From assembly GCA_963804995.1 (NCBI GenBank), contig CAWDSK010000005.1:1056001-1120000 (forward strand): a stretch of 64,000 nucleotides of DNA. Reading direction: 5' to 3'. This document shows positions 20,251 to 44,838 of the stretch, in pieces. This stretch comes from an uncultured Acidobacteriota bacterium (GTDB taxonomy: Bacteria > Acidobacteriota > Terriglobia > UBA7540). Position 1 is the stretch's first letter, and every line of letters starts with the position of its first letter. Under the pieces are notes generated by a model. The model searched no databases and had not been told where the DNA came from. It saw only the letters and a program-made list of their open reading frames with translations. The position numbers and the translations under genes were made by a program.

Positions 20251-20260
20251 GAGGCGTTGA

Positions 20261-21086: not shown

Positions 21087-21857
21087 ATGGGAATGTCGCA
21101 AGCTGTTTCATCTGATTTTGGGTCCATGGTCGGTCCTCCCCCCTTCATAAAGCTGAGGAGCGGAAGCCCGGGGAGGATGGCCTCACCTGCCTCCAGGCCG
21201 GTTAACTCTCCGAGTATTGCCGGCCCACAGGACAGGGGCAACGAGTGGGCGGTCGTCCAGCAAGCCATTGCTGGGAATGCTGACGCGCAAGAGCGTCTCT
21301 TCGCGGGTCACACACGCCGGCTCTATCGGACTGTATTCGCGCTGCTCAACAATATGGAAGACGCCGAGGATGCACTACAGGAGGGCTTGTGCAAGGCGTT
21401 CACCACCCTCCGCTCGTTTCAGGGGCGGTCGTCTTTCTCCACGTGGCTTACCCGCATCGTCATAAACTCGGCGTTGATGGCCCGCCGCAGGAAGAGCGCC
21501 CATCCAGAAGCTTCCTTGGACGAGATGCTGGATTATCAGCCCAATCAGATGCCGCGCGGATTCGTCGATCCGCGGCCCGACCCCGAAAAACTCTACGCCG
21601 AGACCGAGCTCAATGCACGGGTCGAAGAGCATGTCAGCCAACTCCCGCCCGCACTGCAAATGGCCATTCGACTCCATGCTTTATACGGCTTGTCCGCGCC
21701 GCATTCAGCCGAGGTTCTTGGGGTCTCGGCGAGCGCAATCAAATCGCGAATCTTTCGGGCGCGATTGAAGCTGGCCTGTGGGCTGTACCGATCGCTCGAG
21801 GTTAGCGCGATCGGGCTCATGTTGAGAAAACGTGGCAATCTGAGAGTCAGGGGTTAA
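21087..21857 (+). CDS. ECF-type sigma-70 factor
   Basis: DAEDALQE, SFQGRSSFSTWLTRIVIN (region 2), AEVLGVSASAIKSRIFRAR (region 4); start uncertain. Confidence 0.9.
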   Translation: MGMSQAVSSDFGSMVGPPPFIKLRSGSPGRMASPASRPVNSPSIAGPQDRGNEWAVVQQAIAGNADAQERLFAGHTRRLYRTVFALLNNMEDAEDALQEGLCKAFTTLRSFQGRSSFSTWLTRIVINSALMARRRKSAHPEASLDEMLDYQPNQMPRGFVDPRPDPEKLYAETELNARVEEHVSQLPPALQMAIRLHALYGLSAPHSAEVLGVSASAIKSRIFRARLKLACGLYRSLEVSAIGLMLRKRGNLRVRG

Positions 21858-21875
21858 TGGATCGGGGGGTGGACC

Positions 21876-23783: not shown

Positions 23784-23784
23784 C

Positions 23785-24441
23785 ATGGGGGGTATGATCC
23801 CATTATCGGACGCGTCTCGGGAGCCTCGGAGTTTCCCTGTCGCCACCATGGCTATCATCGTCGCGAACTCGATTGTATTTGTTATGGAACTCATGGGTGG
23901 GGACGCATTTGTAATGAAGTGGTCGGAGATCCCCGCCAACATCGTTGCAGGTCACCACTGGATCACCATCCTGACGGCGATGTTCATGCACGCCGGTTGG
24001 ATGCACATAATCGGCAACATGGTGTTTCTGTGGGCATTTGGCCCAGAAGTCGAAGACGCCATGGGGGTGCCAAAGTACCTGGCGTTTTACCTGCTCAGCG
24101 GTCTGGCGGCTTCTCTGGCGCAGACCGCCATCATGCCCAGTTCCACCGTCCCCAATCTCGGCGCCAGTGGCGCCATTGCCGGTGTGATGGGTGCCTTTCT
24201 GGTTACCTACCCTCATGATGAGATACGCACCGTGCTTCTGTTGGGCTGGTTCACCCGTATAACTTTTATTCCTGCGGCGCTCCTGATCGGATTCTGGTTT
24301 CTCATTCAGCTCTTCAATCAGGTCGGCGCTGTGGCGGACGTGCAGGGGGGTGGCGTCGCTTATGCCGCTCACGTGGGTGGCTTTATCTTTGGGGCAGTTA
24401 CCGCTCGACTTTTTGAGGGCTCCGGGGCCGCCTCCGATTAG
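23785..24441 (+). CDS. rhomboid intramembrane serine protease
   Basis: FMHAGWMHIIGNM, GASG, AHVGG. Confidence 0.95.
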   Translation: MGGMIPLSDASREPRSFPVATMAIIVANSIVFVMELMGGDAFVMKWSEIPANIVAGHHWITILTAMFMHAGWMHIIGNMVFLWAFGPEVEDAMGVPKYLAFYLLSGLAASLAQTAIMPSSTVPNLGASGAIAGVMGAFLVTYPHDEIRTVLLLGWFTRITFIPAALLIGFWFLIQLFNQVGAVADVQGGGVAYAAHVGGFIFGAVTARLFEGSGAASD

Positions 24442-24452
24442 GGATATTCGTC

Positions 24453-26975
24453 ATGTTGTCCGATGCTGCCGCGACCCAGGTTGCGATTACCGGTTTGACG
24501 CCACAAGAAGCTCAGGCTCGGCTCGACCAGTTCGGGCCCAATGAGCCTGCGGCGACAAAGCACCATTCTTTTCTCTCTGATCTCCTGCATGTATTTATGA
24601 ATCCGCTGGCGTTGATTCTGCTGATTGCCGCCATTGTATCGGCATTCACGGGAGACGCGGTAGATGCGGGAATCATCGGCGTTATTGTTCTGCTGAGCGG
24701 GGCTATCGACTTAAGTCAGACGTATCGTTCCCAGCGCGCCGTTGAAGAACTGCGCGATCAGGTTGCCCCGACAGCAACCGTCCTGCGCGGCGGGGAGTGG
24801 AAAGAAATGCCACGGCGTGACGTGGTGCCGGGAGACATCATCCGGCTTTCCGCGGGAGATCTGGTTCCCGCTGACGCACGGCTCTTGATTGCGCGCGACA
24901 TCTATGTCCAGCAAGGAATGCTAACCGGCGAATCGCTCCCCGTCGATAAAGAAGCGACCGGAGAGCCCGCCTCGACCAAAGCGGATGCGCACAACATGGT
25001 CTTTCTCGGCACCTCCATCGTGAGCGGAACCGCAACCGCCGAGGTCGTCGCCACGGGTGCGCGGACCGCCTTTGGCGATATTGCGGCTCGCCTGGCCGCA
25101 CGCCCGGAAGAGACAGCCTTCGATAAGGGCTTGACAAATTTCAGCCATCTCATTGCGCGAACGGTATTCTTCCTCGTTCTCTTCCTGCTTGTCACCAGCA
25201 TTATTCGCCACCGTGATCCGCTTCAATCCCTGATGTTTGCAGTTTCACTAGCCGTGGGCTTGACCCCCGAGTTCCTGCCCATGATTACGTCGGTGACGCT
25301 TTCGAAAGGCGCCGTCGCCATGGCCCATAAGAAGGTCATCGTCAAGCATCTGTCCTCGATTCAGAACCTCGGCAGTGTGGATGTGCTTTGCAGTGATAAA
25401 ACCGGAACGCTCACCGTGGGAACCATGACGCTCGACCGCTCGCTCGATCCCTTCGGGAATCCATCCCTGCGCGCGCTGGAACTCGCCTATCTCAACAGCA
25501 AGTTCGAGACAGGTATCCGCAGTCCGCTGGATGATGTCATCCTTCATCAGTCTCCGTCCAAGATTGACGACTACACCAAGTGCGACGAGATTCCGTTCGA
25601 ATTCGAGCGGCGGCGGCTTTCGGTGGTGGTGGAGCGGCAGGCCCTGAGGGTTCTCATCACGAAAGGTGCTCTGGAAGGAATTTTCCCACTACTCTCCGGT
25701 TGCGAGGTCGAAGGCAAAACAGAACCCATCAGCAAGGACGCTGCCCAGCGCATCCAACAGACGAGCGATGAGCTGAATAGCCAGGGATTCCGCTCTCTGG
25801 CGGTGGCTTACGTGGAAGTTCCTGCACGCCCGGACTACTCCATTGCGGACGAGCGCAATCTCATCCTGGCAGGCTTTTTGAGCTTTGCTGATCCGCCGTT
25901 GCCGGACGCCGCCCAGGTTCTGGCTTCTCTAAAGCAGGATGGGGTTGAGGTCAAGGTCATCTCCGGTGACAACGACCGCGTCACTGCCCATGTTTGCGCG
26001 CAGGTGGGAATCGAACCCGGCCACGTCGTCACGGGCGACGAATTGGACCACACGACGGACCCGGCGCTGGCGCACCTCGCCGCTGAAACGCGGGCCTTCG
26101 CCCGCATTTCCCCGGTGCAGAAGAACCGCATCCTCTTGGCTCTCAAACACAACGGCCACGCCGTGGGGTTCATGGGCGATGGCATCAATGACGCGCCATC
26201 GTTGCACGCGGCTGATGTAGGCATATCCGTGTCCAGCGCTGCGGACGTGGCTCGCGAGTCTGCCGACGTTATTCTCATTGAGCCTGGCCTGCGGGTTCTG
26301 CATGATGGCATCATCGAGGGGCGCAAAGCCTTTGGCAACGTGATGAAGTATTTGCTGATGGGCACCAGCTCGAACTTTGGAAATATGCTCAGCATGGCCG
26401 GGGCTTCGGTCTTCCTCCCGTTCTTGCCCATGCTGCCCACGCAAATCCTGCTGAATAACCTTCTTTACGACGTAGGCCAACTCACCATTCCCACGGATAA
26501 TGTTGACGAGACTTACCTCGCTAAGCCCCAACGATGGGATATCAGCCTGATTCGCAATTTCATGGTGTTCATCGGGCCGATCAGTTCCATCTTCGACTTT
26601 CTAACTTTCTATGTGTTGCTGCATTTCTTCCATGCGAGCGAAGCACAGTTTCATACCGGTTGGTTTGTCGAATCACTTGCAACCCAGACGCTGGTGCTGT
26701 TCGTCATCCGTACATCCAAAAATCCATTCCACAGCCGTCCGAGTAATCCCTTAACCGCAACATGCCTGGCGGTTGTGGCGATCGGGATCTATTTGCCGTT
26801 CAGCCCGGTGGCCGGCATGCTCGGCTTCACGCCCTTGCCCGGGTCATATTTTGCTTTTGTGGCTGTCGCGACGGGAGTCTATCTCTTGCTGGTGGAAGCC
26901 GGAAAACGGGTCCTTCTCCATGGGGCAGATCAGAAGAATTCGGTCAAGCATGGAGATGCCTTAGCGGTCGCCTAA
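24453..26975 (+). CDS. mgtA: Mg2+-importing P-type ATPase
   Basis: TGES, AVGLTPEFLP, DKTGT, GDGINDAP, SSNFGN, WFVESLATQ. Confidence 0.93.
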   Translation: MLSDAAATQVAITGLTPQEAQARLDQFGPNEPAATKHHSFLSDLLHVFMNPLALILLIAAIVSAFTGDAVDAGIIGVIVLLSGAIDLSQTYRSQRAVEELRDQVAPTATVLRGGEWKEMPRRDVVPGDIIRLSAGDLVPADARLLIARDIYVQQGMLTGESLPVDKEATGEPASTKADAHNMVFLGTSIVSGTATAEVVATGARTAFGDIAARLAARPEETAFDKGLTNFSHLIARTVFFLVLFLLVTSIIRHRDPLQSLMFAVSLAVGLTPEFLPMITSVTLSKGAVAMAHKKVIVKHLSSIQNLGSVDVLCSDKTGTLTVGTMTLDRSLDPFGNPSLRALELAYLNSKFETGIRSPLDDVILHQSPSKIDDYTKCDEIPFEFERRRLSVVVERQALRVLITKGALEGIFPLLSGCEVEGKTEPISKDAAQRIQQTSDELNSQGFRSLAVAYVEVPARPDYSIADERNLILAGFLSFADPPLPDAAQVLASLKQDGVEVKVISGDNDRVTAHVCAQVGIEPGHVVTGDELDHTTDPALAHLAAETRAFARISPVQKNRILLALKHNGHAVGFMGDGINDAPSLHAADVGISVSSAADVARESADVILIEPGLRVLHDGIIEGRKAFGNVMKYLLMGTSSNFGNMLSMAGASVFLPFLPMLPTQILLNNLLYDVGQLTIPTDNVDETYLAKPQRWDISLIRNFMVFIGPISSIFDFLTFYVLLHFFHASEAQFHTGWFVESLATQTLVLFVIRTSKNPFHSRPSNPLTATCLAVVAIGIYLPFSPVAGMLGFTPLPGSYFAFVAVATGVYLLLVEAGKRVLLHGADQKNSVKHGDALAVA

Positions 26976-27033
26976 CCATTGTTCCGATGGGCGCTCCGAG
27001 AGCGATGCAGCGGAATGGGTGGGGTAAAGTAGC

Positions 27034-28081
27034 CATGATGCGAAAAGTCATGCCTGCTGCCGCATTGCTGGCCATGATGGCTGTGGCCGCATTGCCCGGC
27101 TTTTCTCGGTCGAATCCTGACCTTGAAACATTCTTTCGGCAGAACATTGGACTGAGTGAGGATCAAATCGCCGCCATCCGAAATGGACATCCGGTCGCGA
27201 AGGCTCTTCCGCCCCGCGTGCCGGCCGAGGTCCTGTTGTTTGGCGCGGTCTTCATCCATGCTGCTCCCGAGGCCTACTTCCAGTTGGCCCGCAATTTCGA
27301 CAGCCTTCGCAAGGTTCCCGGCTTTTTGGCGCTTGTAGTATTCACCGATCCTCCGCAGCTTACTGACTTGCGCGGTTTTGCATTCGACAGCAATGAAATC
27401 AAGGACTTGAAAAGTTGCCAACCCGGCGACTGTCGGATTCAGATGCCTGCGACCTCCATCGAAGAACTCCATCGGTCCGTCGATTGGTCTGCCGACGATG
27501 TGGGTGAACAAGTCAATCAACTCCTGCAGAAGACGGCATTAGAGCTTCTGCTTGCCTATCAGCGCGAGGGCAATCAGGCCCTGGGGATTTATAACGATAA
27601 ACGTGACCCGACCGCGGTTCCCGAGCAGTTCGCATACCTGCTCAGCTACGGCAAGGCCTTGTCAGAGCATGTGCCGGATTTCTACCATTACCTTCTCGTC
27701 TACCCCCATGCGAAGCCCGCGAACTACGAGGAGACGTTCTATTGGGCAAGGGTGCAATTCGGACTAAAGCCGACGTTGCGCATTGTGCACATGGTGAGCA
27801 TGCGTGGGAGCCCCACCGACCCTATAGCATGTGCCATCGCCCAAAAGCAGCTCTATTCGAGCCATTACTTCCAGACCGCGTTGGACCTTTCCATCTGCGT
27901 CCGCGAAGGTGGCGACCGGAAGCGATCCGGCTTCTATCTGATCAAGGCCTTGGGTTCTGAGCAGGCGGGCCTAAGCGGCGCCAAGGGATCGATGGTTCGA
28001 AAGGCTGCGGTGGGCCGGGCGGTTTCAAATCTCCAAAATGGCCTCGCGGTTATCAGGGACACGCTGCAAGGTGACCAGTAG
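27034..28081 (+). CDS. exported hypothetical protein
   Basis: Signal peptide MMRKVMPAAALLAMMAVAALPG; long co-oriented ORF. Confidence 0.75.
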
Positions 28082-28171
28082 GCTCCCGGAGATCGGCCAG
28101 TACGCCATGAACTCGGAATGTAGCAGGTTGGTTCGGTGTTGATATGCCAGTAGCTTACTTCGAGGTGCAAA

Positions 28172-29062
28172 ATGAATCAGTTGGATACCAAGAGCCCCAT
28201 TGCGCCGAAGAAAATCTTGTTGGCCACAGATTTTTCCCCCGCGTCAGAGGCGACGTTACCTTACGCATTGACGATCGCTCACCATTATGGCTCAGAGCTT
28301 TGCGTTGCCCACGTGATCTGCCCGGAGTTCGCAGAACTCATAGCACCTGAGTTGATACCGACGATCCGCCAGGAGGCCCACCGATTCGCACAACAAAACA
28401 TGGAGCGTTTACTCAGTGCCGGACGCCAACGGGGCGTTTCGTGCCACGCGTTAATTGGGGAGGGTGCGATCTGGGATGTTCTTCAGGATATGATTCAACA
28501 AAACGGCCTCGATCTGATTGTTTTGGGGACTCACGGACGTCGAGGACTGCGCAAGTTACTGCTCGGCTCCGTGGCGGAGGAGGTCTTTCGAATGGCGCCG
28601 TGTCCGGTACTCACCGTAGGCCCGAAAACCTCGGAGATACGGTCGATGGATGTTCATCTGGACCACATCCTTTACCCGCTGGAGTTCGTCCCCGATAGAA
28701 GCGATGCCGCGGCATACGCTGTCTCATTAGCTGAGGAATACCATGCCAGGCTGACCATCATGAAGATCTTTGCGGAGATGGTTCCGCCTCCGGACGTGAA
28801 TGCCGCAGTCGAGGAGCCTGTCAGGCACTGGATGGATGATCATATCCCGATGGAATCAGACCTGCACCAGCGCACGAGCTTTGCGCCAGGGTTCGGCCCG
28901 GCGGCGGAAGCAATTCTTAAATTCGCCAGTGATCGCGAGGTAGACTTGATCGTGATGGGCGTGTGCCGTTTGGATCCGGTCATGGCTGCTCACCTTCCCA
29001 AACCTGACACTGCCTACGAGGTGGTCCGCACCGCACCCTGCCCGGTGCTCACCGTGCGTTGA
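28172..29062 (+). CDS. tandem-domain universal stress protein
   Basis: KILLATDFS, DLIVLGTHGRRG..LLLGSVAEEV, APCPVLTV twice. Confidence 0.93.
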   Translation: MNQLDTKSPIAPKKILLATDFSPASEATLPYALTIAHHYGSELCVAHVICPEFAELIAPELIPTIRQEAHRFAQQNMERLLSAGRQRGVSCHALIGEGAIWDVLQDMIQQNGLDLIVLGTHGRRGLRKLLLGSVAEEVFRMAPCPVLTVGPKTSEIRSMDVHLDHILYPLEFVPDRSDAAAYAVSLAEEYHARLTIMKIFAEMVPPPDVNAAVEEPVRHWMDDHIPMESDLHQRTSFAPGFGPAAEAILKFASDREVDLIVMGVCRLDPVMAAHLPKPDTAYEVVRTAPCPVLTVR

Positions 29063-29801
29063 GGTTTAACCAATAGCTAAATTGCAGAGGCCAGCTTTAC
29101 CGGGGCCTATTGTGGATAGCCCGCAAATCCCCATTACTGCCCGAAAGTTCTCAAGAAATCCATAGTAAGCGGTCTAATTTCAATAAGTTAAAAAGATAGC
29201 AATGTTCTCTCAATTTGTTTTCAGCGGTCTATCAAGACGGACGTTGATGTTTGCCATCTTTTAGCCAGCAAACTCCCCAAGTGGAGCCAGAACCTGCCAA
29301 TTCCGTTAGGTCAAAGGTTGACAGATTGGGTGGGCCCGAACAATCCCCTGAACTCATAGCTCATAGCATGTATTTTCAATGATGTTTTCGAATGGCGGGC
29401 CATTTTCGCCTTTTCCAAACTCCCCCGCTTGACATTGAGCACTCAGCGATCGGTCTGAGACTTCGGACCATTAAGCATGCGGGGTCAAGCTTCCTTGGCG
29501 CGCGAACTGGGGGGTTCGCAGGAGCCCAGAATCTTGCGAATTATCGGCGCGGAGAGAAATAACTGTCGAAGTGGTTCATCCGCGGGCAGGGAGTTCGCCA
29601 GCTTCATAATCGTCCCGCGGCTGAGTGCCAAATGGCGTTTCGTCAACTCTCTTGATTTCATCCCCCGCTCGGGGCGCACAGTTTCTGCCTAAAAGAGCAG
29701 ACGTGCTTCGGTTGGTGTATGATGCGCGCTATGGCCTCTCCAGGACGCGAATCGGAGCCCGTGTACGTTTTCACCATGCCCGGCAAAGGTGAGGATGCTT
29801 G

Positions 29802-32800
29802 ATGATGGATAAACGAATCTCTGGATCCTGGCGCACAGCCTGGGAATGCCTGTTGGCCAGTATGGCGCTGGCCGTGTTGACCTTGGTCAGCTTTCGGCTC
29901 CATGCCGGTCCTGCCATGGCCGCCCTCCTCTTCTTTTTTTTGGTCGTATTGATTTCCCTGTGGGCAGGGTTTCTTTCGACGGTCTTTGCCTGCGCCGTGG
30001 CCGCTTTATGCTTTGTCTACTTCTTTACTCAACCGCTTTACCATCTTTGGATGAGCGAGCCCGTGGAAATTGCCGCGACGATTGCGTTCTCGAGTACCGC
30101 CCTAATCATTAGCCGCCTGTTGTCAAGGGTAAGAGAGCGGACCGCCGAGCTCCAGCAGGCCAACGAGCAGTTGCAGGCGGAAATCGCCGAGCGCAGGCGT
30201 GCGGAAGAAGGGGTTCGGCAAAGGGAAGCGGAGCTTCGGCAGCTTATCGACGCCATCCCTCAGCATGTCGTCGTCCTGGATCCGGATGGAAGTTTTCTTT
30301 ACTTGAATCAGGTTGCCCTCGAATACAGCGGTCTAACCCTGGAAGGCAGTTTGGCGAAGGAGTGTGTCCAGCAAAGGCTGGTATGTTCAGTGGGAGTTAG
30401 TCCCACCAAGGCAAGAGTCAGGAGCCTTGTAGCTTGGGTCGCATCCGTGGAGGAAACGAAGCGGATGAAGCTGACCGACAAAGCCATCCAAGGGATGGTG
30501 AGCGAGTCACCGGGCCGTAACGCAAGTGAACCCATAGGTGGCCTCGACAAAAAAATAGATCCGGAGGCCGAGCCCTCTCCTTCGGGGCGAAGGCAGCATG
30601 GCATGACGTGGGCTGACCGAGACGACATGTCACTCCGGCGGGGTGGTAGGGGCAGCACGGTGGCAAGGGCATGTCAAGCAACTGGAGAAACCGTCCTCGT
30701 CCCATCGAGAGATCGGTGGAGCAGGGTAGGCCGTATAACCGGAGACAACGGGAAATCGGCTGACGGCGAGACGGTGGCGGTTAGGCTCGAAGTAGCGACG
30801 AAGTGGGGTAACGCCCATGGAGCGAAGGGGCCTTGCTGCACAGCAAGTCTTGGCCAACATGGGAGGCAGGGGTGAAATGATAAAAGCGCCCTTTAAGCTG
30901 CAAGACCTGCGGCGAAGACTTTACGTCAAGGCGAAGGCTGAACCGACTTGGCGATTCTGGGGGTTGTATGTCCACGTCTGCAAACGAGAAACTCTCTGGG
31001 AAGCGTATCAGCTAGCTAAGGAGAACAAGGGAGCCCCAGGAGTAGATGGGGTCACGTTCCAGGCAATCGAGGCTGAAGGCTTGCAGGGATTTCTCGAACA
31101 GCTTCGCGAGGAGCTGGTGCAGCGGAGATATCGACCTCGACGGCTGCGGAAGGTAGGGATTCCGAAGGAGGGCGGAAAGGTTCGCCAACTTTCGATTCCT
31201 TGCATTCGCGACCGAGTGGTCCAGGGAGCGTTGAAGCTGATCCTGGAACCGATCTTTGAGGCCGATTTCCAACCGGGATCGTTTGGCTACCGGCCGAAGA
31301 AGTCAGCCCACGCTGCGATTCAACGCGTCTCGGAGGCAATCGTGCGGCACATGACCTTTGTCGTTGATCTCAACTTGCGTTCCTACTTCGATACGGTTCG
31401 ACATTCCCTCGTACTGGAGAAGGTGGCACGGCGAGTGAACGACACCGAGGTCCTAGGGCTGCTCAAACTGCTGCTGAAGGCGTCGGGGAAGCAGGGTGTT
31501 CCGCAAGGCGGGGTGATTTCGCCCTTGCTCAGTAACGTGTACCTCAATGAGGTGGACAAGATGCTGGAAAAGGCGAAGGAAGTCACCCGCGAGGGGCGGT
31601 GGATGAACGTCGAATATGCCAGATTCGCCGATGATCTGGTGGTTCTGGTGAACGCTCATCCCCGGCAGGCCTGGCTTCGCAAGGCAGTGGAAAAGCGGCT
31701 ACGGGAGGAGTTGGCCAAGCTGCAGGTTGAGGTGAACGAGGAGAAAAGCCGGAGGGTGGATCTTCAGCAAGGAGAGAGTTTCGGATTTCTGGGGTTTGAG
31801 TTCCGTCGCATCCGCAGTCGGCGGGGCCGATGGATGCCGCTGCGTACGCCGCGGGGCAAGAAGCGGACGGCATTGCTACGCAAGCTCAAGCTAGTTTTCC
31901 GGAGCTATCGCTCTCAGCCTGTGAGGGGGTTGATCGAGCAGATCAATCCCATTCTGCGCGGCTGGGTGAACTACTTTGCGGTCGGGCACTCCAGCCGGTG
32001 CTTCTCGTATATCCGCGACTGGGTAGAGAAGAAGATTCGGTGCCACTTGGCGAGGGCCAGACAACGCCCAGGCTTCGGATGGAAGCGGTGGCGTAAGGAG
32101 TGGCTGTATGGCACGCTCGGGCTCTTCCACGAGTACCGCGTGGTCCATCAGTCATCCTCCTGGGCAGCCGCCCCGACCCGATAGGCCCCATAACCCTTGC
32201 CGTGAAGTGTGCAGGAACGCGTAGTGCGGGAAATCCGCACGCTACGTGTGATGTGGCGGGAGCTGGAAACGGGGCTCGGAGCTTTCTCGGAGCCGCCGCG
32301 CCAGTTCCCGACCCTACCTCTCTGACGAAGCTCTTTCACCCCGACGATCTGGAAAGAGTAGTGGGGGAACGCCAGCAGACGATTTCACGCGGCGTGCCAT
32401 GGGATGCGGAAGTGCGGATACGCGGAAAAGACGGCGACTACCGCTGGTTCATAATCCGTCTCAACCCTCTGCGGGACGAGCAGGGACGCATCCTTCGGTG
32501 GTATGGCACAAGTACCGACATCGAGGATCGCAAGCGGGCCGAAGAAACCTTGCGGGGGCAGGCAGATCTTCTCAATCTCACGCACGACGCCATTTTTGTA
32601 GCGGATATGGAGGGGGTGATCAAGTACTGGAATCATGGCAGCGAGGAGCGGTACGGCTGGACCGCCGAGCAAGCGGTGGGCACAGTTGTTCACGACCTGC
32701 TGAAGACAGTCTTCCCGGCGCCGCTGGAGCAAATCAAAACGGAAGTGATACGTAAAGGTCGCTGGGATGGCGAACTTGTGCATACCAAGAAGGACGGAAC

Positions 32801-35699
32801 CCGGGTAGTGGTGGCGAGCCGTTGGTCTTTGCAGCGGGACAAGCAAGGCGCGCCAGTTGCCATCCTGGAAACCAACAACGATATCACGGACCGCAAGCGG
32901 GCGGAGGAGGCGTTGCGTCGTTTGAACCGCGAACTGCGAGCGATCAGCAACTGTAACCAGATCCTCCTGCGCGCCACTGACGAGCAGAGCTTGCTCGAAG
33001 AAATCTGCCGGATCGTCTGCCAGGAGGCCGGTTACCGCATGGCGTGGGTGGCCTATGCCGAGCACGACGAGGCCAAGAGCGTGCGCCCTGCCGCGTGGAC
33101 CGGGACCGAGGAGGGATATCTCGCAAACCTCGGCATTACTTGGGCCGACACGGAGCGCGGGTGGAGCCCTACCGGGACAGCCATCCGCAGCGGGAAAAGT
33201 TGCTGCATTCAGGATTTCGCCACGGATCCCCGCCTGGCGCCCTGGCGGGAGAGCGTTTTGCAGCACGTTTTTCTTTCCGGCATCGCCCTGCCGCTTAAGG
33301 ACGAACACGCGAGCGCCTTCGGCAGTCTTAGCATTTATTCCGCACAGCCCAACGCTTTTACGTCGGAAGAGATTCGGCTGCTGGAGGAACTGGCTGGCGA
33401 CCTGGCGTTCGGCATCATCACCCTGCGATCGCGGGCCACTGGCGAACGGGCAGAGCTGGCTCTGCGGCAGAGTGAGGCTTATTTAGCGGAATCGCAGAGG
33501 CTGACCCACACGGGTAGTTGGGCTTTGGATTTGGCCAGCGACAAGTATGTCTACGTTTCGGAGGAGGACTTTAGACTTTGGGGATTTGATGCGCAAGAGG
33601 GTTTACCGTCGCGGGAAGCAGTTTTCCGACGAATCCACCCGGAGGATCGGGACAAGATGAGAGCGAGCTTTGAGAAGTCGCTTCGCGAAAAAGTAGATTC
33701 CTCCGACGAGTACAGGATCGTGCTGCCCGACGGAACGGTCAAACATGTTCACACCATCCGCCACCCTGTCCTGAATGGCGCGGGAGACCTCGTTAAATTG
33801 GTGGGCACATCAGTGGATATCACGGAACGCAAACAGGCGGAGGAAGCGCTGCGCGAGAGCGAGACGCGCTTTCGCACCTTTGTGGACCACGCCGCGGACG
33901 CCTTCTTCATCCTGGACTTCGAGCAAGGAACCATTATTGATGTGAACCGGAGCGCCTGCGAGAGCCTTGGTTATACGCGGCAGGAACTGATCGGGACGAT
34001 GGGGCTTGCCTTCGACCAGAACGTGGATCGAGCGGTTACGGAATCGATCGCGGAGCGGACGGCGGCGGGCGAAACCGTGATCGACACGCACTGGCATCAG
34101 CGCAAGGACGGGACGCTGTTCCCTGTGGAAGTACACACCAGCCAGTATTGGCGGGGAGGCCGTCGCTTCCTGCTGAAGGTAGCCCGGGACACCAGTGACC
34201 GTTTGCGGGCCGAGGAAGCGCGCGCCTACCTCGCCTCCATCGTGGAGTCCTCCGACGACGCGATAATCGGAAGATCCATGGAGGGGATCATTCAATCCTG
34301 GAACCGGGGCGCGGAGAGGCTCTATGGGTATACGGCCCAGGAGGCGATTGGCCAGCCGATCACCCTGGTGATTCCACCCGACCGTGCCCAAGAATTCGTG
34401 AGTAGCGACCGCCTCAAACGGGGAGAGCCGATTCAGGAGTTCGAAACCGTTCGGGTGGGGAAAGATGGCCGGCGAATCGATGTGTCAGTCATTATCTCCC
34501 CTATGAAGGACGCCGCCGGTCGCGTGCTCGGCGCCGCGACGGTCGCCCGCGACATCACCGAGCGCAAGCGCGCTCAGGAGGCACTGCGGAGAAGCGAGGC
34601 TTATCTGGCGGAAGGGCAGCGGCTGAGTCACACAAGCAGTTGGGCTTTCGATTTGGCCAGCAACAAGTATATCTACGTTTCGGAGGAAAACTTCCGAATT
34701 TTTGAAATGGATGCACAAGAGGGTCTACCGAACAGGGAAGCGATTTCCCGACTTATCCACCCGGAGGATTGGGACAGGGTGAACGAGGCCTTTGAGAAGT
34801 CGCTCCGCGAAAAAGTAGATGCCTCGAGCGAGTTCAGGATCGTGCTGCCCAGCGGAACGGTCAAACATCTTCAGGCGATCCGGCACCCAGTCCTGAATGA
34901 TGCGGGAGACGTCGTTGAACTGGTGGGTAGCGTGATCGATATTACGGAACGCAAGCGCGCCGAACAAGAGCGCGAGAGGCTGCGCCAACTCGAGGCGGAT
35001 CTCGCGCACCTCGACCGCGTAAGCATGATGGGGGAACTGGCAGCCTCCATCGCCCACGAAGTCAACCAGCCGCTTTCGGGCGTCGTGGTCAACGCCAATG
35101 CCTGCTTGCGTTGGCTGGCGGGAGATTCGCCCAATCTTGACGAAGCCCGGGAGACTGTCCGGCGTATCGTCCGCGACGGGAAGCGGGCGGGAGACGTGAT
35201 CGCCCGCATTCGGGCTCTGGCGACGAAAACAGCCACCACCAAGGAACGGCTGGATATGAACGAGGCCATTCGGGAGGTCGTGGCTTTTGCCCAGGACGAA
35301 GTCCGCAGGAATCGTGTGACCCTGCGAACCGAATTCGCGCCTGATCTCTCCCTGGTGTGGGGCGATCGAGTGCAGCTTCAGCAGGTGGCCCTTAACCTGG
35401 TCATGAACGCGGTCGAAGCCATGAGCAGCGTGGAAGAGCGGCCGCGAGAGCTGATCGTCAGAACGCAAAACGATGATGCCGGCCAGGTGCGGGTTACCGT
35501 CCAAGACTCGGGGATGGGGCTTGACCCGCAGAGCATGGAACGGATTTTTGATGCTTTCTACACCACCAAGCACGGGGGAATGGGCATGGGGCTCTCGATT
35601 AGTCGTTCCATTATCCAGAATCACGGGGGCAAGCTATGGGCGGTGGCGAATGACGGGCCAGGCATAAGCGTTCAGTTTACTATTCCCAAGTACCAATAG
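29802..35699 (+). CDS. multi-sensor histidine kinase (DUF4118-like TM, 6 PAS, GAF, HisKA, HATPase) split by a group II intron; join(29802..30361,32318..35699), ~1313 aa
   Basis: Spliced junction reads LAK-D-SLTKLFHPDD in frame; IAHEVNQP H-box, QVALNLVMNA, DSGMG, FYTTK.GGMGMGL. Confidence 0.92.
30362..32317 (+). mobile_element. group II intron, 1956 nt
   Basis: 5' GTGTG, 3' CCCTAC; domain V GAACGCGTAGTGCGGGAAATCCGCACGCTACGT at ~32215-32250; EBS1 TCCTTC (30578-30583) in a GCCC/GGGC loop complements exon IBS1 GAAGGA (30356-30361). Confidence 0.93.
30877..32184 (+). CDS. ltrA: group II intron RT/maturase without endonuclease domain
   Basis: GAPGVDG, IPCIRDRVVQ, SFGYRP, PQGGVISPLLSN, RFADD, maturase INPILRGWVNYF. 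Confidence 0.95.
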   Translation: MIKAPFKLQDLRRRLYVKAKAEPTWRFWGLYVHVCKRETLWEAYQLAKENKGAPGVDGVTFQAIEAEGLQGFLEQLREELVQRRYRPRRLRKVGIPKEGGKVRQLSIPCIRDRVVQGALKLILEPIFEADFQPGSFGYRPKKSAHAAIQRVSEAIVRHMTFVVDLNLRSYFDTVRHSLVLEKVARRVNDTEVLGLLKLLLKASGKQGVPQGGVISPLLSNVYLNEVDKMLEKAKEVTREGRWMNVEYARFADDLVVLVNAHPRQAWLRKAVEKRLREELAKLQVEVNEEKSRRVDLQQGESFGFLGFEFRRIRSRRGRWMPLRTPRGKKRTALLRKLKLVFRSYRSQPVRGLIEQINPILRGWVNYFAVGHSSRCFSYIRDWVEKKIRCHLARARQRPGFGWKRWRKEWLYGTLGLFHEYRVVHQSSSWAAAPTR

Positions 35700-35708
35700 G
35701 AGTCCCCT

Positions 35709-36338
35709 TTGCCGGAGCCTGACGCATTAGTCTTGGTTGTGGACGACGACGTGTCGGTGCGCGAGGCTTTGGAAGGTTTGATTCGGTCCGCGGGATTGAG
35801 GGCCGAGACCTTTCGCTCGGCGCAGGAGTTTTTGGCTCGCCCGAGGGCCGATGTGCCAAGCTGCTTGGTATTGGATGTTCGGCTGCCGGGTCTGAGCGGG
35901 CTCGAGCTTCAGAAGCGCATGGCCGAGGCCAACCTGGAGATTCCGATTATTTTTATTACCGGCCACGGCAATGTTCCGGCTGCGGTGCAGGCCATGAAAG
36001 CGGGTGCGCAGGAGTTTCTTACCAAGCCCTTCACGGACCGGGACCTGTTAGACGCGATTCAAAAGGCGATAAATTGCGATCGGGTGGCGCGCCGGCATCA
36101 GGCAGAAATGCGCGAGTTGCGCGGCCGGTATGAATCCTTAACGCCGCGCGAACGAGAGGTTATGGAGCTGGTGGTCTCCGGGTTGCTGAATAAACAAGTG
36201 GCCGCTGAACTGGGGACCAGCGTGATTACGGTTAAAATTCAGCGCGGCCAGGTTATGCGCAAGATGCGGGCCGACTCTTTGGCCGACCTGGTGAGAATGT
36301 CCGAGAGCCTGGGGATACGGCGCGTGAAGAAATTGTAG
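35709..36338 (+). CDS. FixJ/NodW-type response regulator (REC + LuxR HTH)
   Basis: [37 protein letters not shown]. Confidence 0.93.
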
Positions 36339-36424
36339 GTCCGGGCCGCCCTCCTCCCCCCAGACGAACTTAATACCAAGGTGTGATAGACAAGGCCACT
36401 TGCCAGGGTGCTAAATGAACCTGT

Positions 36425-36814
36425 ATGGCGAAGGTTCCTCTAATTACGGTAGTTGATGACGACGAGTCGGTCCGTGAATCCCTGGACGGTTTATTGAGGT
36501 CCGTGGGGTTTGCGGCGAAGGTATTTGCTTCGGCCGAAGAGTTCTTGAATTCGGACCATCTGAGCGATATCGACTGCCTGTTGCTGGATGTGCGCCTGCC
36601 GGGCATGAACGGGATCGAACTCCACCATCACTTGGTGGCCAATCGCAGTGAGGTACCCGTTATCTTCATCACAGCCCATGGATCTGAGGAAGGGGTGCGC
36701 TCCCAGGCTTTGCGGAACGGCGCGGTGGATTATCTGATCAAGCCACTCAGTGAAGATACGGTGTTGAATGCGGTCCAGAAGGCTCTGAGCGCGAAGCAAC
36801 ATACCCAGGGATAA
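36425..36814 (+). CDS. single-domain response regulator
   Basis: VDDD, LDVRLPG, ITAH, IKP; no output domain. Confidence 0.92.
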   Translation: MAKVPLITVVDDDESVRESLDGLLRSVGFAAKVFASAEEFLNSDHLSDIDCLLLDVRLPGMNGIELHHHLVANRSEVPVIFITAHGSEEGVRSQALRNGAVDYLIKPLSEDTVLNAVQKALSAKQHTQG

Positions 36815-36915
36815 TCTTAATTCAAGAACCTATAACCATAGGTTATTGCGGGATTGATTAAACGCAGTGAGGTTTTCCTGTCAAACCCATTGGACAATCG
36901 TAGGGAGGCTTTCCC

Positions 36916-38394
36916 ATGAGTGACAGAGGCGCTCCAATCTACTTGGTAGACGACGATGTATCGGTGCGGGAATCGGTGGGAAGTCTGATTCGCTCCGCAG
37001 GATTCCGGGCGAAAACGTTCGCGTCGGCGCAGGAGTGTTTAGCCGGCCTGCAAGCTGAACAGCCGAGCTGTTTGGTACTGGATGTGCAGCTCCCGGGGCT
37101 AAGCGGACTCGATCTTCAACAAGAGCTTGCCAAGGCGGATGTGCAACTCCCGATTATTTTCCTGACCGGCCACGGCGACATTCCCATGTCCGTACGCGCC
37201 ATGAAAGCCGGCGCCCTGGAGTTCTTGACCAAGCCCTGTGACGGTGAAGATCTACTGAATGCTATCCGGCAGGGTATCGCTCGTCATCAGGCAGCCCGGC
37301 AGCCAAGTCAAAACCTGGCGCAGCATAGTTTTGACGGCAGCATCGGTGCGAGGGCAGAATCAAGCGATAAACTCGCGCCGGAAAAGCTCTACCTGGGGGA
37401 AGAAATCTGTCGGGAGGCGAACTTCGAAGGCATCGTGGGACAGAGTCCAGCCCTCCGGGAGGTGCTGAAACTCGTCGAAGTGGTGGCGGCAAGCGATTCG
37501 ACCGTGCTCGTGTTGGGAGAGACGGGCACCGGCAAGGAACTCATTGCGCGCGCTATTCACAATCGCAGCCTGCGCAAGCAACGAGGTTTTGTCAAGCTCA
37601 ACTGCGCCGCGGTGCCCAGCGGCTTGCTTGAGAGTGAACTGTTTGGCCACGAGCGCGGCGCCTTCACGGGCGCCATCACGCAAAGGGCCGGGCGGCTCGA
37701 AGTTGCAGATCAGGGTACGCTGTTCCTGGATGAGGTCGGGGACATCCCTTTGGAAATCCAACCGAAACTGCTGCGCGTATTGCAGGAGCGGGAATTCGAG
37801 CGATTGGGCAGTACGCGGACGAAGAAAGTTGACGTTCGGGTCGTGGCGGCAACCCATCGTGCCCTGGAAGAAATGATCGTGGAGAAGCAGTTTCGCCTCG
37901 ATCTCTACTACCGTCTGAATGTTTTCCCCATTCATATTCCACCCTTGCGCGAACGTCCGGAAGACATTCCGCTGCTCGTTTGTCATTTCGTCCGGCAATT
38001 CGCCCAGCGAATGAACAAGACCATTGATGGGATTTCTTGCGACACGATGGAGGCGCTGATTCGATACTCATGGCCGGGGAACATCCGGGAGCTGCAAAAC
38101 GTTATCGAACGATCAGTGATTGTTCACGTAAAAGGGAACCTCTCAGTCAAGCAGAGCTGGCTTGCTCACGAATGCCTCGCCACCGGATCGGCAACAGCGT
38201 CGTCCTTCAGAAAGTCGGTGAGGGAGGAGCGAAAAGTGATTGGCGCGGCCTTGGCCGAGACGCGCGGCCGAGTGTCGGGACCGTTGGGCGCGGCCGCCAA
38301 GCTGGGCATTCCTCCTTCGACTCTGGAATCGAAGATCCGAGCGATGAAGATCAACAAGCATAGCTTCAAGACCTTCAGTGCCGTTCCAAGCTAA
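36916..38394 (+). CDS. sigma54-dependent enhancer-binding response regulator (REC + AAA+ + Fis-like HTH, FhlA-like C-terminus)
   Basis: [57 protein letters not shown]. Confidence 0.96.
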
Positions 38395-38576
38395 TGAATC
38401 TCGGGGCGTTTGACTTTATTGCCTACCCGTATCGGGCGGAGGATGTGTGGATTCTAGGCACAGCGCTCCGCAGACGCCCTGAGCCTGCGCGGAAACCCAA
38501 GACTAACTCGGGGCGCGGAACCTCCGCCCAACCTTACTCGCCCAACCTTACTCCCCCCAGCTATCCAATCTAGGTA

Positions 38577-38669
38577 TTCGCGAACTTCGTGAATTCGCGA
38601 GAAGATTGCGGCGGTGAGATGCGCGAACCTTAGCGTTTTCAAGAGGTTGCAATTGGCGCTTGCATTGCA
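38577..38669 (+). promoter_or_regulatory. sigma54 promoter cassette 7
   Basis: TTCGCGAA-c-TTCGTGAATTCGCGAG (38586-38601); IHF-like TTTCAAGAGGTTG 38637-38649; GG 38655-38656, GC 38667-38668. Confidence 0.9.
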
Positions 38670-38741
38670 TTGATGAAGCTGAGGGACTGCCAGGAAGGTG
38701 TGAAGTGGGTTGTCCAGTTTTTAGCTAGCGAGGAGAAAAAC

Positions 38742-39506
38742 ATGTTACGCAAGTTAAGATACATTGTGGTGTTGGTCGTAGTTATGGCCGCCGTGCTTCT
38801 AGTGGGCGCGTGCAAGAAGAAGGTGGCAGCGCCACCTCCGCCGCCGCCCCCGCCGCCCGCACCGCCAGCCCCCACCGTCACACTGACTGCCGAGCCCAGC
38901 ACTATCGAACGTGGACAATCCGTCACCCTGAGCTGGACTTCGGAGAACGCCACCGACTTGGACCTGCAACCCGGGATCGGCAAGGTTCAAGCCCAGGGGT
39001 CACAGACCGCCACACCACAGGACTCAACCACTTATACCCTGACGGCCACCGGTCCGGGTGGAACCAATACCGCCACGGCGCGTGTGACGGTCACCATTCC
39101 GCCTCCGCCTCCGCCACCACCGCCGGCACCCAAGCCCGCGGAGTTGAGCGAGGAGCAGTTGTTTGAACAGTTCATCAAACCTGCGTACTTTGATTTTGAC
39201 AAGGCTGACATCCGCTCGGATGCGCAAGCAGCACTTACCTCCGACGGCGATTTCCTGAAAGAGCACACGAGTATCAAATTCACCATTGAAGGGAATTGCG
39301 ACGAGCGCGGGAGCGAAGAATACAACCTGGGCTTAGGCGATAGGCGCGCGACTTCGGCCAAGAATTTCCTGGTCAACCTCGGGGTGACAGCCGATCGGAT
39401 TTCCACCATTTCCTATGGAAAGAGCCGGCCGGTCTGTAGCGAGAGCACCGAGGAGTGCTGGCAGAAGAACCGCCGAGCAGGGTTCAGGCCCGGCACCAGT
39501 CAGTAG
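38742..39506 (+). CDS. pal: peptidoglycan-associated OmpA/Pal-like lipoprotein with poly-Pro linkers and an Ig-like domain
   Basis: Lipobox VGAC, YFDFDK, IEGNCDERGSEEYNLGLGDRRA, NRR. Confidence 0.9.
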   Translation: MLRKLRYIVVLVVVMAAVLLVGACKKKVAAPPPPPPPPPAPPAPTVTLTAEPSTIERGQSVTLSWTSENATDLDLQPGIGKVQAQGSQTATPQDSTTYTLTATGPGGTNTATARVTVTIPPPPPPPPPAPKPAELSEEQLFEQFIKPAYFDFDKADIRSDAQAALTSDGDFLKEHTSIKFTIEGNCDERGSEEYNLGLGDRRATSAKNFLVNLGVTADRISTISYGKSRPVCSESTEECWQKNRRAGFRPGTSQ

Positions 39507-40616: not shown

Positions 40617-41050
40617 ATGATAAGTATTAGAAAAATCGGCGTCATGGGTCGCACGTATCGGCATGCCAAACGATACGCAGAAATACTCAACATTCTTATT
40701 AAATACGGCTTTGGGGATCTGGTTGACGATCTGAACATAAAACAGTACATCGAAATCGGCATTGAAAAGGTTACCGGAAAAGAGCCGGAGCGAATTGCAA
40801 AATTGTCCCGGCCGGACAGGGTCAGGATGACTTTGGAAGAGCTTGGACCGACCTTCGTCAAACTAGGCCAATTACTCTCCACGCGACCGGATCTTATTCC
40901 GTTGGAATATGTGCAGGAACTTTCCAAGCTCCAGGACAATGTACCACCCTTTCCTTATGACGAGGTAAGGGCGGCTGTCAAAGCGGAGACGGGCAAGTTC
41001 CCGGAAGAAATCTTTCACTCCATCCACAAAACGCCTATCGCCGCCGCCGC
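40617..41050 (+). pseudogene. ABC1/UbiB kinase N-terminal fragment
   Basis: LEELGPTFVKLGQLLSTRPDL, LQDNVPP; stops at PIAAA before the kinase core. Confidence 0.85.
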
Positions 41051-41154
41051 GCTTCTCGGTGGATGGGCGCGCCAATGGAAATCATGACGCCGGAGATGCT
41101 TGCCGAATTGTACGGGGCTCCGCCCAAATACTACGGGCACATCCAGGAGCATTG
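41051..41154 (+). pseudogene. metal ABC ATPase (ZnuC-like) C-terminal remnant
   Basis: One frame reads GAPMEIMTPEMLAELYGAPPKYYGHIQEH-stop, directly before a ZnuB-like permease. Confidence 0.6.
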
Positions 41155-43231: not shown

Positions 43232-43918
43232 ATGAAAATCGACGAATACCGAAAGAAGCGTAATTTCGGTGTGACGCCCGAGCCACGGGGCGCAAGCCAT
43301 GCTCAGGAAAAGGGCAATGAATCGCTTATTTATGCTCTGCAGAAGCACATGGCCTCGCATCTGCACTACGACTTTCGTCTGGAATGGCGCGGCGTACTTC
43401 TCTCCTGGGCGGTGCCCAAGGGTCCCTCGCTCGACCCTTCGGTGAAGCGCCTCGCGATGCAGACAGAGGATCACCCCATCGAGTATTCCGACTTCGAAGG
43501 AGTGATTCCCGTCGGTCAATATGGTGCGGGAACCGTGATGCTTTGGGACAAAGGCACCTGGCAACCGGAAAGCGCTGATGTAGACGCTTCATTGGAGGCG
43601 GGAGAGATCAAATTCACGCTTCACGGGGCGAAGCTCCAAGGCTCGTGGGTCTTGGTTCACACCCGGGGCTTGGGGAGCAATCCTGCTCGATCTGCATGGC
43701 TGCTAATCAAACATCGCGATCAGTACGCATCCACGAAGGATGTGACGCAGGAAGAGCCGCGGTCCGTAGCGAGCCACCGTCTTCTAGCAGAGATCGCACG
43801 GGACGGAGGGGGCGACATCGAAAGAGCTTCGGTGGGTGATCCGGCTGTCAAAGAGAGGCGCAAAACGAGCGTGAAGCCGGCGCCAGGACGTGTTCGGCGG
43901 AGAAAGCGGGTGTTGTGA
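43232..43918 (+). CDS. ligD: LigD 3'-phosphoesterase domain, stand-alone
   Basis: KRNFGVTPEP, QKH.ASHLHYDFRLE, SWAVPKGPS, EDHP. Confidence 0.93.
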   Translation: MKIDEYRKKRNFGVTPEPRGASHAQEKGNESLIYALQKHMASHLHYDFRLEWRGVLLSWAVPKGPSLDPSVKRLAMQTEDHPIEYSDFEGVIPVGQYGAGTVMLWDKGTWQPESADVDASLEAGEIKFTLHGAKLQGSWVLVHTRGLGSNPARSAWLLIKHRDQYASTKDVTQEEPRSVASHRLLAEIARDGGGDIERASVGDPAVKERRKTSVKPAPGRVRRRKRVL

Positions 43919-44838
43919 CGGACAGGATCCCATTTCGCGTCCAACCGATGCTGGCAACGCTCGTCACCCAGCCCTTCCACAAACCTGGTTGGGTCTACGA
44001 AGAGAAATACGACGGTTTTCGCATCCTTGCTTACAAGGAAAGGGCCAGCGTCAGCCTTCTATCCCGAAATGGCAAGGACCGCACCCAGACATACCCGAAC
44101 ATCGCGGCTGCGGTCTCCAAGCTTCCAGATCGCGCGCTGCTCCTCGACGGCGAGGTAGTCGCCTTCGATAACCGCCGAGTCTCCCGCTTCCAGCTTCTCC
44201 AGGAAGGTATGGTTCCGCCGCTTTATGCGGTCTTCGATTGCCTTTACCAAAACGGGCGTGACCTGCGTGCCGAGCCACTTTCCACACGGCGCGGCCCCAT
44301 GGAAGCGGCGATTCGGGGAAGCGAGCGTCTTCTCCCGGCTCACCGTCTGGCCGAAAACGGGCTCGAGGCCTTCCGGGTGGCGAAAACAAAAGGTTACGAG
44401 GGAATGGTCGCCAAAGACCTCACGTCGCCCTACATCGAAGGGCGCTCCCGGAAGTGGCTGAAATGCAAGGTCCATCAGGAGGACGAGTTTGTCATTGCGG
44501 GCTACACCGCCCCGGCGGGCTCACGCACGCATTTCGGCGCTCTTCTGCTGGGCGCCTATCATCGAGGACAGTTGCACTATGTGGGCAAGGTGGGCACGGG
44601 GTTTGATACGAAGTTGCTCGCCTCACTGTATCAAGAGTTCCAGCCTTTGGTGCGAAAACAGGCTGCTTTCGTCGATCCGCCGCCGGAGAAGGGGGTGACG
44701 TATCTCGTCCCGCAGCTCGTGGCCCAGATCGCTTATGAGGAGTTGACGGCTGACAAAAAGTTGCGACAGCCCGTCTTTCTGGGGCGGCGCGACGATAAGA
44801 GCGCAAAAGAATGTTTTCTCCCAGGAAAAACGGGATGA
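43915..44838 (+). CDS. ligD: LigD/LigC-type ATP-dependent DNA ligase domain, stand-alone
   Basis: EKYDGFR, DGEVV, EGMVAK, WLKCK, GKVGTGF. Confidence 0.93.
   Translation: MTDRIPFRVQPMLATLVTQPFHKPGWVYEEKYDGFRILAYKERASVSLLSRNGKDRTQTYPNIAAAVSKLPDRALLLDGEVVAFDNRRVSRFQLLQEGMVPPLYAVFDCLYQNGRDLRAEPLSTRRGPMEAAIRGSERLLPAHRLAENGLEAFRVAKTKGYEGMVAKDLTSPYIEGRSRKWLKCKVHQEDEFVIAGYTAPAGSRTHFGALLLGAYHRGQLHYVGKVGTGFDTKLLASLYQEFQPLVRKQAAFVDPPPEKGVTYLVPQLVAQIAYEELTADKKLRQPVFLGRRDDKSAKECFLPGKTG

Follow-up and report, generated by a model that had tools for sequence, protein, structure and literature searches.

To our knowledge, regulation in the Acidobacteriota is almost unexplored by experiment. We analysed a stretch of 64,000 nucleotides (nt) from an uncultured bacterium of this phylum (GenBank assembly GCA_963804995.1, contig CAWDSK010000005.1, positions 1,056,001 to 1,120,000 of the forward strand; hereafter the window), centring on a run of genes in which a histidine kinase is followed by three receiver proteins, the last of them joined to a predicted sigma-54 activator, and on a repeated DNA motif that this activator may read. 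According to an earlier note on this DNA, the kinase is followed by a FixJ-type regulator, a lone receiver domain (REC) and a REC-AAA+-helix-turn-helix (HTH) protein, and Pfam searches recovered all three behind the kinase, on the + strand (Table 1). The intergenic gaps along the run are 9, 86 and 101 nt. Scans of positions 29000-38750 for sigma-70 promoters (3 found, 3.0 expected in shuffles) and for terminators (5 found, 11.0 expected) were uninformative on operon structure.

Table 1. Positions of the signalling genes, the intron and the array-promoter units (window coordinates unless a contig or locus is named)
Feature	Position	Strand	Evidence or context
Histidine kinase gene, then three receiver genes	29802-38394	+	Pfam, translation
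Kinase exon 1: DUF4118 membrane domain, coiled linker, N-terminal half of PAS1	29802-30361	+	Pfam: DUF4118 63.6 bits, PAS_8 22.6 bits
Group II intron, 1,956 nt, GTGTG...CTAC	30362-32317	+	Rfam; six genomic copies
Intron D1-D4	30388-30525	+	Rfam RF02003, 125.9 bits (cut-off 49), full model
Reverse transcriptase (RT)/maturase open reading frame (ORF) in intron	30817-32184	+	RVT_1 104.9 bits, GIIM 57.2 bits; TIGR04416 363.7 bits (cut-off 300)
Intron D5 hairpin	about 32217-32249	+	Fold of 3' end
Intron D6 with bulged A	about 32255-32313	+	Fold of 3' end
Kinase exon 2: remaining PAS1, more PAS domains, one GAF, HisKA, HATPase_c	32318-35699	+	Pfam
FixJ-type response regulator (REC and GerE/LuxR HTH)	35709-36338	+	Pfam: Response_reg 101.5 bits, GerE 62.8 bits
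Single-domain receiver (lone REC)	36425-36814	+	Pfam: Response_reg 90.5 bits
bEBP-B: FixJ-type REC, Sigma54_activat, AAA_lid, HTH_8 with STLESKIR-type helix	36916-38394	+	Pfam, translation
Array 598-613 and sigma-54 promoter 667-682	598-682	+	Then DUF1269 gene 739-1452
Array 1517-1532 and sigma-54 promoter 1586	1517-1601	+	Then DUF1269 gene 1631-2371
Array 2456-2471 and sigma-54 promoter 2525	2456-2540	+	Then DUF1269 gene 2531-3307 (ORF as listed)
Array and sigma-54 promoter 6026	5958-6041	+	Then 175-residue membrane protein (6131-6658), DUF1269, M50 peptidase
Array and sigma-54 promoter 10067	9999-10082	+	Then MacB-like permease, ABC ATPase, HlyD-like and OEP genes
Array and sigma-54 promoter 17183	17115-17198	+	Then small ORFs, DUF308, ferritin/Dps-like, Rieske, glutaredoxin, FTR-beta
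Cassette 7 array: three 8-bp repeats, TTCGCGAA-C-TTCGTGAA-TTCGCGAG	38577-38601	+
Cassette 7 sigma-54 promoter, TGGCGC-N5-TTGCA	38654-38669	+	68 nt past start of cassette 7 array; OmpA-family gene (38670-39506 ORF) next
Two further array-promoter units	L001:13697, L001:19619	+	Genome-wide scan; just upstream of window
bEBP-A, intact paralogous activator	C5:1047515-1048936		8 kb upstream of window

A kinase gene followed by three FixJ-type receivers

The third receiver protein, bEBP-B, combines the domains expected of a bacterial enhancer-binding protein (bEBP). Its N-terminus matched Response_reg in Pfam (99.4 bits), its central part matched PF00158 along the whole profile (positions 1-168 of 168; 241.2 bits, cut-off 20.2) and residues 437-476 matched HTH_8 (24.8 bits, cut-off 22). 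In the translation 'GETGTGKE', 'LFLDEVG' and 'HERGAFTGA' can be read, and the Walker A and B motifs are intact, as is the GAFTGA motif that had already been described as such. By its domain, GAFTGA/Walker and HTH content bEBP-B is a bEBP, for which activation is predicted, and the genome encodes a single copy of rpoN (189.5 bits).

Comparison with NCBIfam placed the kinase core nearest to FixL (NF041777; 374.4 bits against a cut-off of 850, over the core stretch only) and the FixJ-type regulator nearest to FixJ (NF006900; 209 bits against 255). The FixJ REC was also the top family for the lone REC (111.7 bits) and for the REC of bEBP-B (124.9 bits), in both cases against the cut-off of 255, and residues 151-483 of bEBP-B were closest to FhlA (NF011958), with profile positions 358-690 matched (423.3 bits against 830). 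The names 'FhlA-like' and 'FixL/FixJ-like' previously given to the locus are fair as pointers to the nearest named families, but every one of the proteins scores under the NCBIfam cut-offs.

The receiver of bEBP-B is 59% identical to that of the adjacent FixJ-type regulator, bearing out the striking likeness between the two that had been noticed before, and 45% identical to the lone REC. We ranked it by phmmer against the 18,808 ORFs of at least 100 residues in its own genome. Behind bEBP-B itself (259.7 bits) came bEBP-A, a paralogous activator encoded upstream of the window (166 bits), the FixJ-type regulator (150 bits), a broken second FixJ-type gene (98 bits) and the two lone RECs, B (95 bits) and A (85 bits), with the best other sigma-54 activator at 70 bits. 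The six FixJ-type RECs form a closed set in this genome.

Related genomes are here numbered G, with the genome under study as G000. We built a tree of 30 RECs, comprising 17 from modules of this kind in five genomes together with those of 10 other activators and three GerE regulators of the own genome; the broken FixJ-type gene (FixJ-A) and the remaining REC matches of the phmmer ranking were left out. All 17 module RECs fell in one clade (100/99), apart from the 13 others. Within this clade the lone RECs made up their own subclade (100/96), and the FixJ-type and activator RECs made up the other (98/97), with the activator RECs monophyletic inside it (100/99). Two lineages could be told apart, B (the window, G074 and G113) and A (the upstream paralog, G040 and G081). 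The order of kinase, FixJ-type regulator, lone REC and activator, followed by an array, recurs in G074, G113, G040 and G081, and the four-gene module is kept in at least two genera. Given the shared order and the tree, the architecture is ancestral and does not reflect a local event in this genome. The tree supports the view that the activator's REC goes back to a FixJ-type receiver through a duplication that predates the separation of these genera, so the event proposed in the earlier note stands, but as an old one and not a local one. Among structures in the PDB, the REC of bEBP-B scored 130.5 bits with StyR, 94.7 with DctD, 93.2 with FixJ and 75.2 with NtrC; its likeness to the DctD receiver, at a score close to that for FixJ, means that a FixJ-like receiver on a sigma-54 activator has precedent. 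As a piece of signalling-module evolution, the locus illustrates how a sigma-54 ATPase acquired a copy of a FixJ-type receiver.

Repeat arrays, sigma-54 promoters and two candidate activators

The motif TTCGCGAA occurs 13 times in the window, where 2.28 occurrences are expected, and none of 100 shuffles reached 13. Eleven of the 13 fall in seven arrays, each of which starts 68-69 nt before the sigma-54-type sequence TGGC-N7-TTGC. The seventh of these cassettes opens with TTCGCGAA at 38577, 183 nt past the stop of bEBP-B at 38394, in agreement with the roughly 180 bp stated earlier. Across the genome we counted 864 sigma-54-like sites, only nine of which have an array (up to two mismatches) within 130 nt upstream. 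All nine of these array-promoter units, which are pattern matches, share the spacing of 68-69 nt, lie on the + strand and are confined to C5:1049765-1094654, a 45-kb island. The operons of the island encode six DUF1269-type membrane proteins, STAS-MlaEFD, MacB/ABC/HlyD/OEP proteins, DUF308 with a Dps-like ferritin, Rieske, glutaredoxin and FTR proteins and an OmpA-family protein; in relatives, Hsp20 is also among the genes downstream of the arrays. Outside the island there are six further matches with two mismatches (one of them at 49188 in the window, in a Usp gene), all of them without a suitably spaced sigma-54 promoter. Another TTCGCGAA, at 33682, falls within the coding sequence of the kinase and was put down to chance.

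An alignment of 25 cassettes from 15 genomes revealed a common plan of TTTTCaCGAAc-TTCGCGAA-TTCGCGAA, a weaker ATTGCGAC, then GTTTTCAAGGGCTTA, a putative IHF-like element between enhancer and promoter, and then the -24/-12 elements. The arrays are putative enhancers made up of two or three TTCGCGAA repeats and span about -103 to -79 relative to the start site. The arrays could have been conserved merely through recent duplication of promoter-gene cassettes, with no protein-binding site under selection, and several cassettes are indeed paralogous, the promoters at 598, 1517 and 2456 being near-identical and driving paralogous DUF1269 genes. Across the alignment, however, the array, its distance to the -24 element and the middle element are fixed, whereas the flanking bases and the downstream genes (STAS/Mla, Hsp20, OmpA, MacB, Dps) vary, and the arrays track a single HTH type across genomes; we regard duplication by itself as a highly improbable explanation. 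No description of the TTCGCGAA motif or of its regulon, nor of such an enhancer/activator pair from the Acidobacteriota, appeared in those parts of the literature that were accessible, and a term search for 'Acidobacteri' in PMC12316311 gave 0 occurrences.

A second copy of the module lies just outside the window, in L001 (C5:1036001-1056000), with a kinase (HK-A), a FixJ-type remnant (FixJ-A), a lone REC (REC-A) and the activator bEBP-A. The two activators are 69% identical overall, with near-identical HTH domains, and HK-A is 79% identical to the window kinase over 579 residues. The reading frame of HK-A changes near L001:9640-9657 and is interrupted by an in-frame TAG at L001:10287, inside HATPase_c, and that of FixJ-A changes near L001:10450; the ORFs of REC-A and bEBP-A are open. 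Sequencing error may account for the frame changes in HK-A and FixJ-A and is a less likely source of the TAG. The paralogous module appears to be half decayed, its kinase and FixJ partner broken and its activator kept. Searched against its own genome, the core of the window kinase scored 310 bits with HK-A and 105 bits with the next best match. As HK-A is broken and no other close kinase is present, the window kinase is the only intact one of its type, and by sequence it would face five intact matching receivers, namely two activators, two lone RECs and one FixJ-type regulator.

Several lines of evidence connect these activators with the arrays. Among about 22 strong PF00158 matches in the genome, bEBP-A and bEBP-B alone have an STLESKIR-type helix; the third-best activator has an FhlA-like helix (..KRTTLQSRM..), unlike STLESKIR. 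The two proteins flank the island, and an array follows directly after each of their genes. With its near-identical HTH, bEBP-A is an equal candidate for reading the arrays. We next consider their co-occurrence in 121 genomes of the family (120 sampled relatives and G000; eight that are flagged unpublished count in the tallies as non-hits only). Arrays were sought as a 16-mer with at most one mismatch and the helix as DNA encoding STLESKIR, a back-translated search that replaced a ranking by whole-protein identity, which hid activators with a diverged AAA+ part; a reversed control pattern gave 0 matches. The helix is encoded in all 11 genomes with two or more arrays (G000, G031, G074, G084, G113, G002, G020, G040, G081, G095 and G115) and in 15 of the 121 overall, the other four being G042, G071, G077 and G120. 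Of the 106 genomes that lack the helix, none reaches two arrays and 17 have exactly one array match, six of which were looked at (G089, G070, G063, G103, G108 and G069). In nine of the 11 multi-array genomes the helix-encoding gene has an array no more than about 1.6 kb away, and the helix accompanies arrays across different input domains: a REC (G074, G113, G040 and G081), none (G084 and G002:C39) or a long N-terminus (G020). In 300 genomes from elsewhere in the phylum there was no exact 16-mer, and 27 of the 300 had scattered matches with one mismatch; three such sites that were checked (in G379 and G355) had no sigma-54 promoter, and G379, G331 and G355 had no STLESKIR helix. The co-occurrence of activator and motif that the earlier note had suggested looking for is seen in 11 of 11 multi-array genomes.

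Several observations weigh against this pairing. The motif in genomes lacking the activator had been named beforehand as what would refute it, and four drafts, G089, G070, G063 and G103 (87%, 93%, 96% and 90% complete), each hold one cassette that is clearly a homologue of those in G000, with no matching activator found by a search with the C-terminal protein part or by the helix pattern. The sigma-54 promoter stands at 68-69 nt in three of these four, G063 reading CGGC at -24. Of the four cassettes, three are no more than 2 kb from the end of a contig, and draft assemblies may break at repeated cassettes. The single array matches of G108 and G069 had no promoter. Conversely, G042, G077 and G120 have the helix and no array at up to one mismatch, and G071 has one array. 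In G031 one of three array matches has a promoter, and its helix gene is on another contig, not near the cassette. A PAS-type activator of G002 has an STLESKIR-type helix as well, so specificity may depend on more than this helix. Finally, relatives within one family are non-independent samples of co-occurrence. The claim that the activator binds the arrays is on balance supported by sequence co-occurrence, though it extends equally to the paralog and has the four drafts against it.

A different protein of the module might read the arrays, with the GerE HTH of the FixJ-type regulator binding the TTCGCGAA palindromes and the activator being recruited elsewhere or acting from solution. Short palindromic repeats are typical for HTH dimers of the NarL/FixJ type, and a FixJ-type gene is found together with arrays in G000, G074, G113, G040 and G081. 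However, G084 lacks a FixJ-type ortholog (best match 37% identical; assembly 84% complete) and yet has nine arrays with a REC-less activator adjacent, which argues against a GerE-type regulator as the reader. The arrays of G002 and G020, too, adjoin activators without a neighbouring FixJ-type gene, and the constant spacing of 68-69 nt to a sigma-54 promoter matches the requirements of an enhancer-binding protein. We consider it improbable that the FixJ-type regulator reads the arrays, and favour the activators.

The same DNA-binding module is paired with other inputs or with none in relatives, and one duplicated module has lost its kinase and kept its activator. Extra copies of STLESKIR-type activators were seen at G113:C78:9429-9724 and G074:C10:226557-227738, each with an array within 450 nt, the latter copy having an internal TAG. 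In L028 (G002:C39:2135-6813) the order is a 982-residue multi-PAS sigma-54 activator whose HTH is very similar, then a short STAS protein, a REC-less activator and an array, an arrangement that suggests a partner-switching input instead of phosphorylation.

A group II intron within the kinase gene

The frame opened at 29799/29802 loses its likeness to kinases at 30361 and regains it, in a different frame, at 32318. A multi-PAS kinase is encoded, as had been claimed, but its frame is not continuous, and a group II intron lies inside PAS1. The 3' end of the intron folds at -64.1 kcal/mol (z -4.2), forming a hairpin that resembles D5 and a long D6 in which an A is bulged, and Pfam detected no endonuclease domain in the intron ORF. 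Using the 1,956-nt intron as query, we found six full-length copies in the genome (positions 1-1956, ~100% identity) and one 496-nt 3' fragment at 92% identity. The flanks of the copies part ways exactly at both ends, giving five distinct sites. An upstream flank of AGTTTTGGCGA(A/T)GGA is common to three of the five (C5:1125512, the C6 tandem site and C1:25168), the insertion site in the kinase is of this type bar one T, and the C4 site has diverged; a C stands directly 3' of the intron at all five. At the tandem site (G000:C6:293628-297539) two full copies lie head to tail with zero bases between them, as if the second copy had homed into the upstream target kept by the first.

Exon 1 stops two bases into a codon, and exon 2 opens at 32318 with the third base. 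G074 has an uninterrupted ortholog of the kinase (1,193 residues), of which residues 1-191 align with 29802-30374 at 90.6% identity and residues 188-978 align from 32319 on. The predicted exon junction restores the ..LAKDSLTK.. of this ortholog with no indel. Six near-identical copies indicate an active element, and the sense orientation means that it is removable from the mRNA. The intron is apparently splicing-competent and recently inserted, and a precise splice would yield a normal kinase.

We also looked for the locus in public sequencing runs, in which the highest share of sampled words in any run was 0.38, and compared read contigs from three runs guessed to be DNA and from one RNA run (X15). 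Two contigs of X2, one of the runs guessed to be DNA, which come from relatives at a likeness of at least 90%, skip the intron, joining 30361 to 32320 and to 32326. The contigs of X15 cover the intron in part only and hold no exon-exon joint. The Rfam D5/D6 family was undetected in 30200-32500 at E values up to 1. A freshwater-sediment contig of X1 (matching 32070-32318 of the window) runs from the end of the intron at 32318 into sequence flanking the C1:25168 copy instead of the kinase, placing the intron at a C1:25168-type site in an environmental sample.

These data bear on the possibility that the window module is decaying like its paralog, with the intron disabling or lowering the kinase and the island under other inputs or under unphosphorylated activators. 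Decay is seen in the breaks of HK-A and FixJ-A, the intron sits within a PAS domain of a coding gene, and spliced RNA was not seen in the partial coverage of X15. On the other hand, the intron ORF is open, D5 and D6 fold well and the six copies point to an active element, and in the kinase both exons are open, the junction restores the ortholog sequence exactly and the intron is sense-oriented. We judge decay unlikely, though it is a more serious contender than the FixJ-type regulator as reader, and prefer a kinase gene that is spliced. The locus is unusual above all in having the intron in the sole intact kinase of this type, which makes for a natural experiment on whether a mobile ribozyme can occupy a regulatory gene harmlessly.

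A proposed circuit, its known relatives and neighbouring genes

Taken together, the sequence data favour a conserved kinase module in which bEBP-B, by way of the arrays, would drive nine sigma-54 operons, and whose kinase gene carries an intron; we give this explanation a probability of roughly 65%. A membrane-anchored multi-PAS/GAF kinase would phosphorylate all three receivers, and phosphorylated bEBP-B would oligomerise on the TTCGCGAA repeats and open the sigma-54 promoters. bEBP-A would act likewise and, with its own kinase and FixJ partner broken, probably relies on the window kinase. Active kinase would need splicing of the intron, which would restore the frame exactly. Most likely, then, bEBP-B acts through the repeated motif to switch on a small number of nearby stress genes.

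The module had previously been proposed as a candidate master switch, which is overstated: the array-promoter unit occurs nine times genome-wide, always in the one 45-kb island, and nine promoters with a module found in part of one family are too little for that name. The predicted regulon is a small, local set. A bolder extension, in which splicing gates a single surviving kinase over a 45-kb envelope and stress island through five receivers, and in which TTCGCGAA and STLESKIR are the first enhancer/activator pair from the Acidobacteriota, is speculative, and we expect it to fail more readily than to hold.

The module is a two-component sigma-54 regulon of a familiar type, with an activator subfamily so far unnamed and a branched set of receivers. 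Like DctB/DctD of rhizobia, it has a REC, AAA+ and HTH activator under a sensor kinase, and tandem sites that precede a sigma-54 promoter. Unlike DctD, bEBP-B has FhlA as the nearest named family for its AAA+ and HTH parts, the kinase combines a DUF4118 anchor with cytoplasmic PAS and GAF domains, the operon holds two extra paralogous receivers, and the targets are envelope and stress genes, where that of DctD is a C4-dicarboxylate transporter. The likeness to FixL/FixJ lies in the kinase core, in all three receivers and in a REC-GerE regulator with the architecture of FixJ, but the scores fall short of the equivalog cut-offs (374 bits where FixL requires 850, and 209 where FixJ requires 255). 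FixJ itself works through sigma-70 promoters, whereas in this module one copy of the receiver is fused to a sigma-54 ATPase. FhlA is the top named family for bEBP-B 151-483, with an alignment that extends through the C-terminal HTH and a score of 423 bits, below 830. FhlA itself carries a GAF input at its N-terminus and no receiver; bEBP-B instead has an N-terminal receiver and no GAF input.

The intron invites comparison with Ll.LtrB, a group II intron with an RT/maturase in a lactococcal relaxase gene. As there, a mobile ribozyme with an RT/maturase lies in sense orientation in a protein gene that needs splicing (here predicted), and it is present in multiple identical copies at similar targets. 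The differences are that the host gene here is a sensor kinase, that one site has a head-to-tail pair and that no endonuclease domain was found with Pfam. Nothing in the locus amounts to a new kind of system; the enhancer motif is newly defined. The locus offers a compact testable case, with a defined enhancer motif, nine promoters of fixed geometry, two candidate activators and a closed kinase-receiver set.

The surroundings of the island show further features. Past the promoter at 17183 nearly all ORFs lie on the + strand for 12 kb (17211-29062), among them those for an ECF-type sigma factor, FtsH, a rhomboid protein, a P-type ATPase and tandem Usp proteins, and this stretch could form one or a few long transcription units under the enhancer of that promoter. 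ORFs for DDE_Tnp_1 transposases of 571 and 629 residues lie among the island cassettes (window 14516-16231 and L001:17583-19472, both on the - strand), and a truncated DDE transposase is present at 60719-61138. Two short ORFs may be gene fragments, one at 40617-41087 matching positions 1-43 of 244 of the ABC1 kinase profile only and one at 49674-49892 matching positions 86-141 of 141 of the Usp profile only. At 43232-45752 (+) the three functions of LigD (phosphoesterase, ATP-dependent ligase and primase-polymerase) are encoded as three consecutive ORFs. Around them are several Usp genes and genes resembling those for glycogen phosphorylase and isoamylase, and this whole part of the window has a stress or dormancy flavour.

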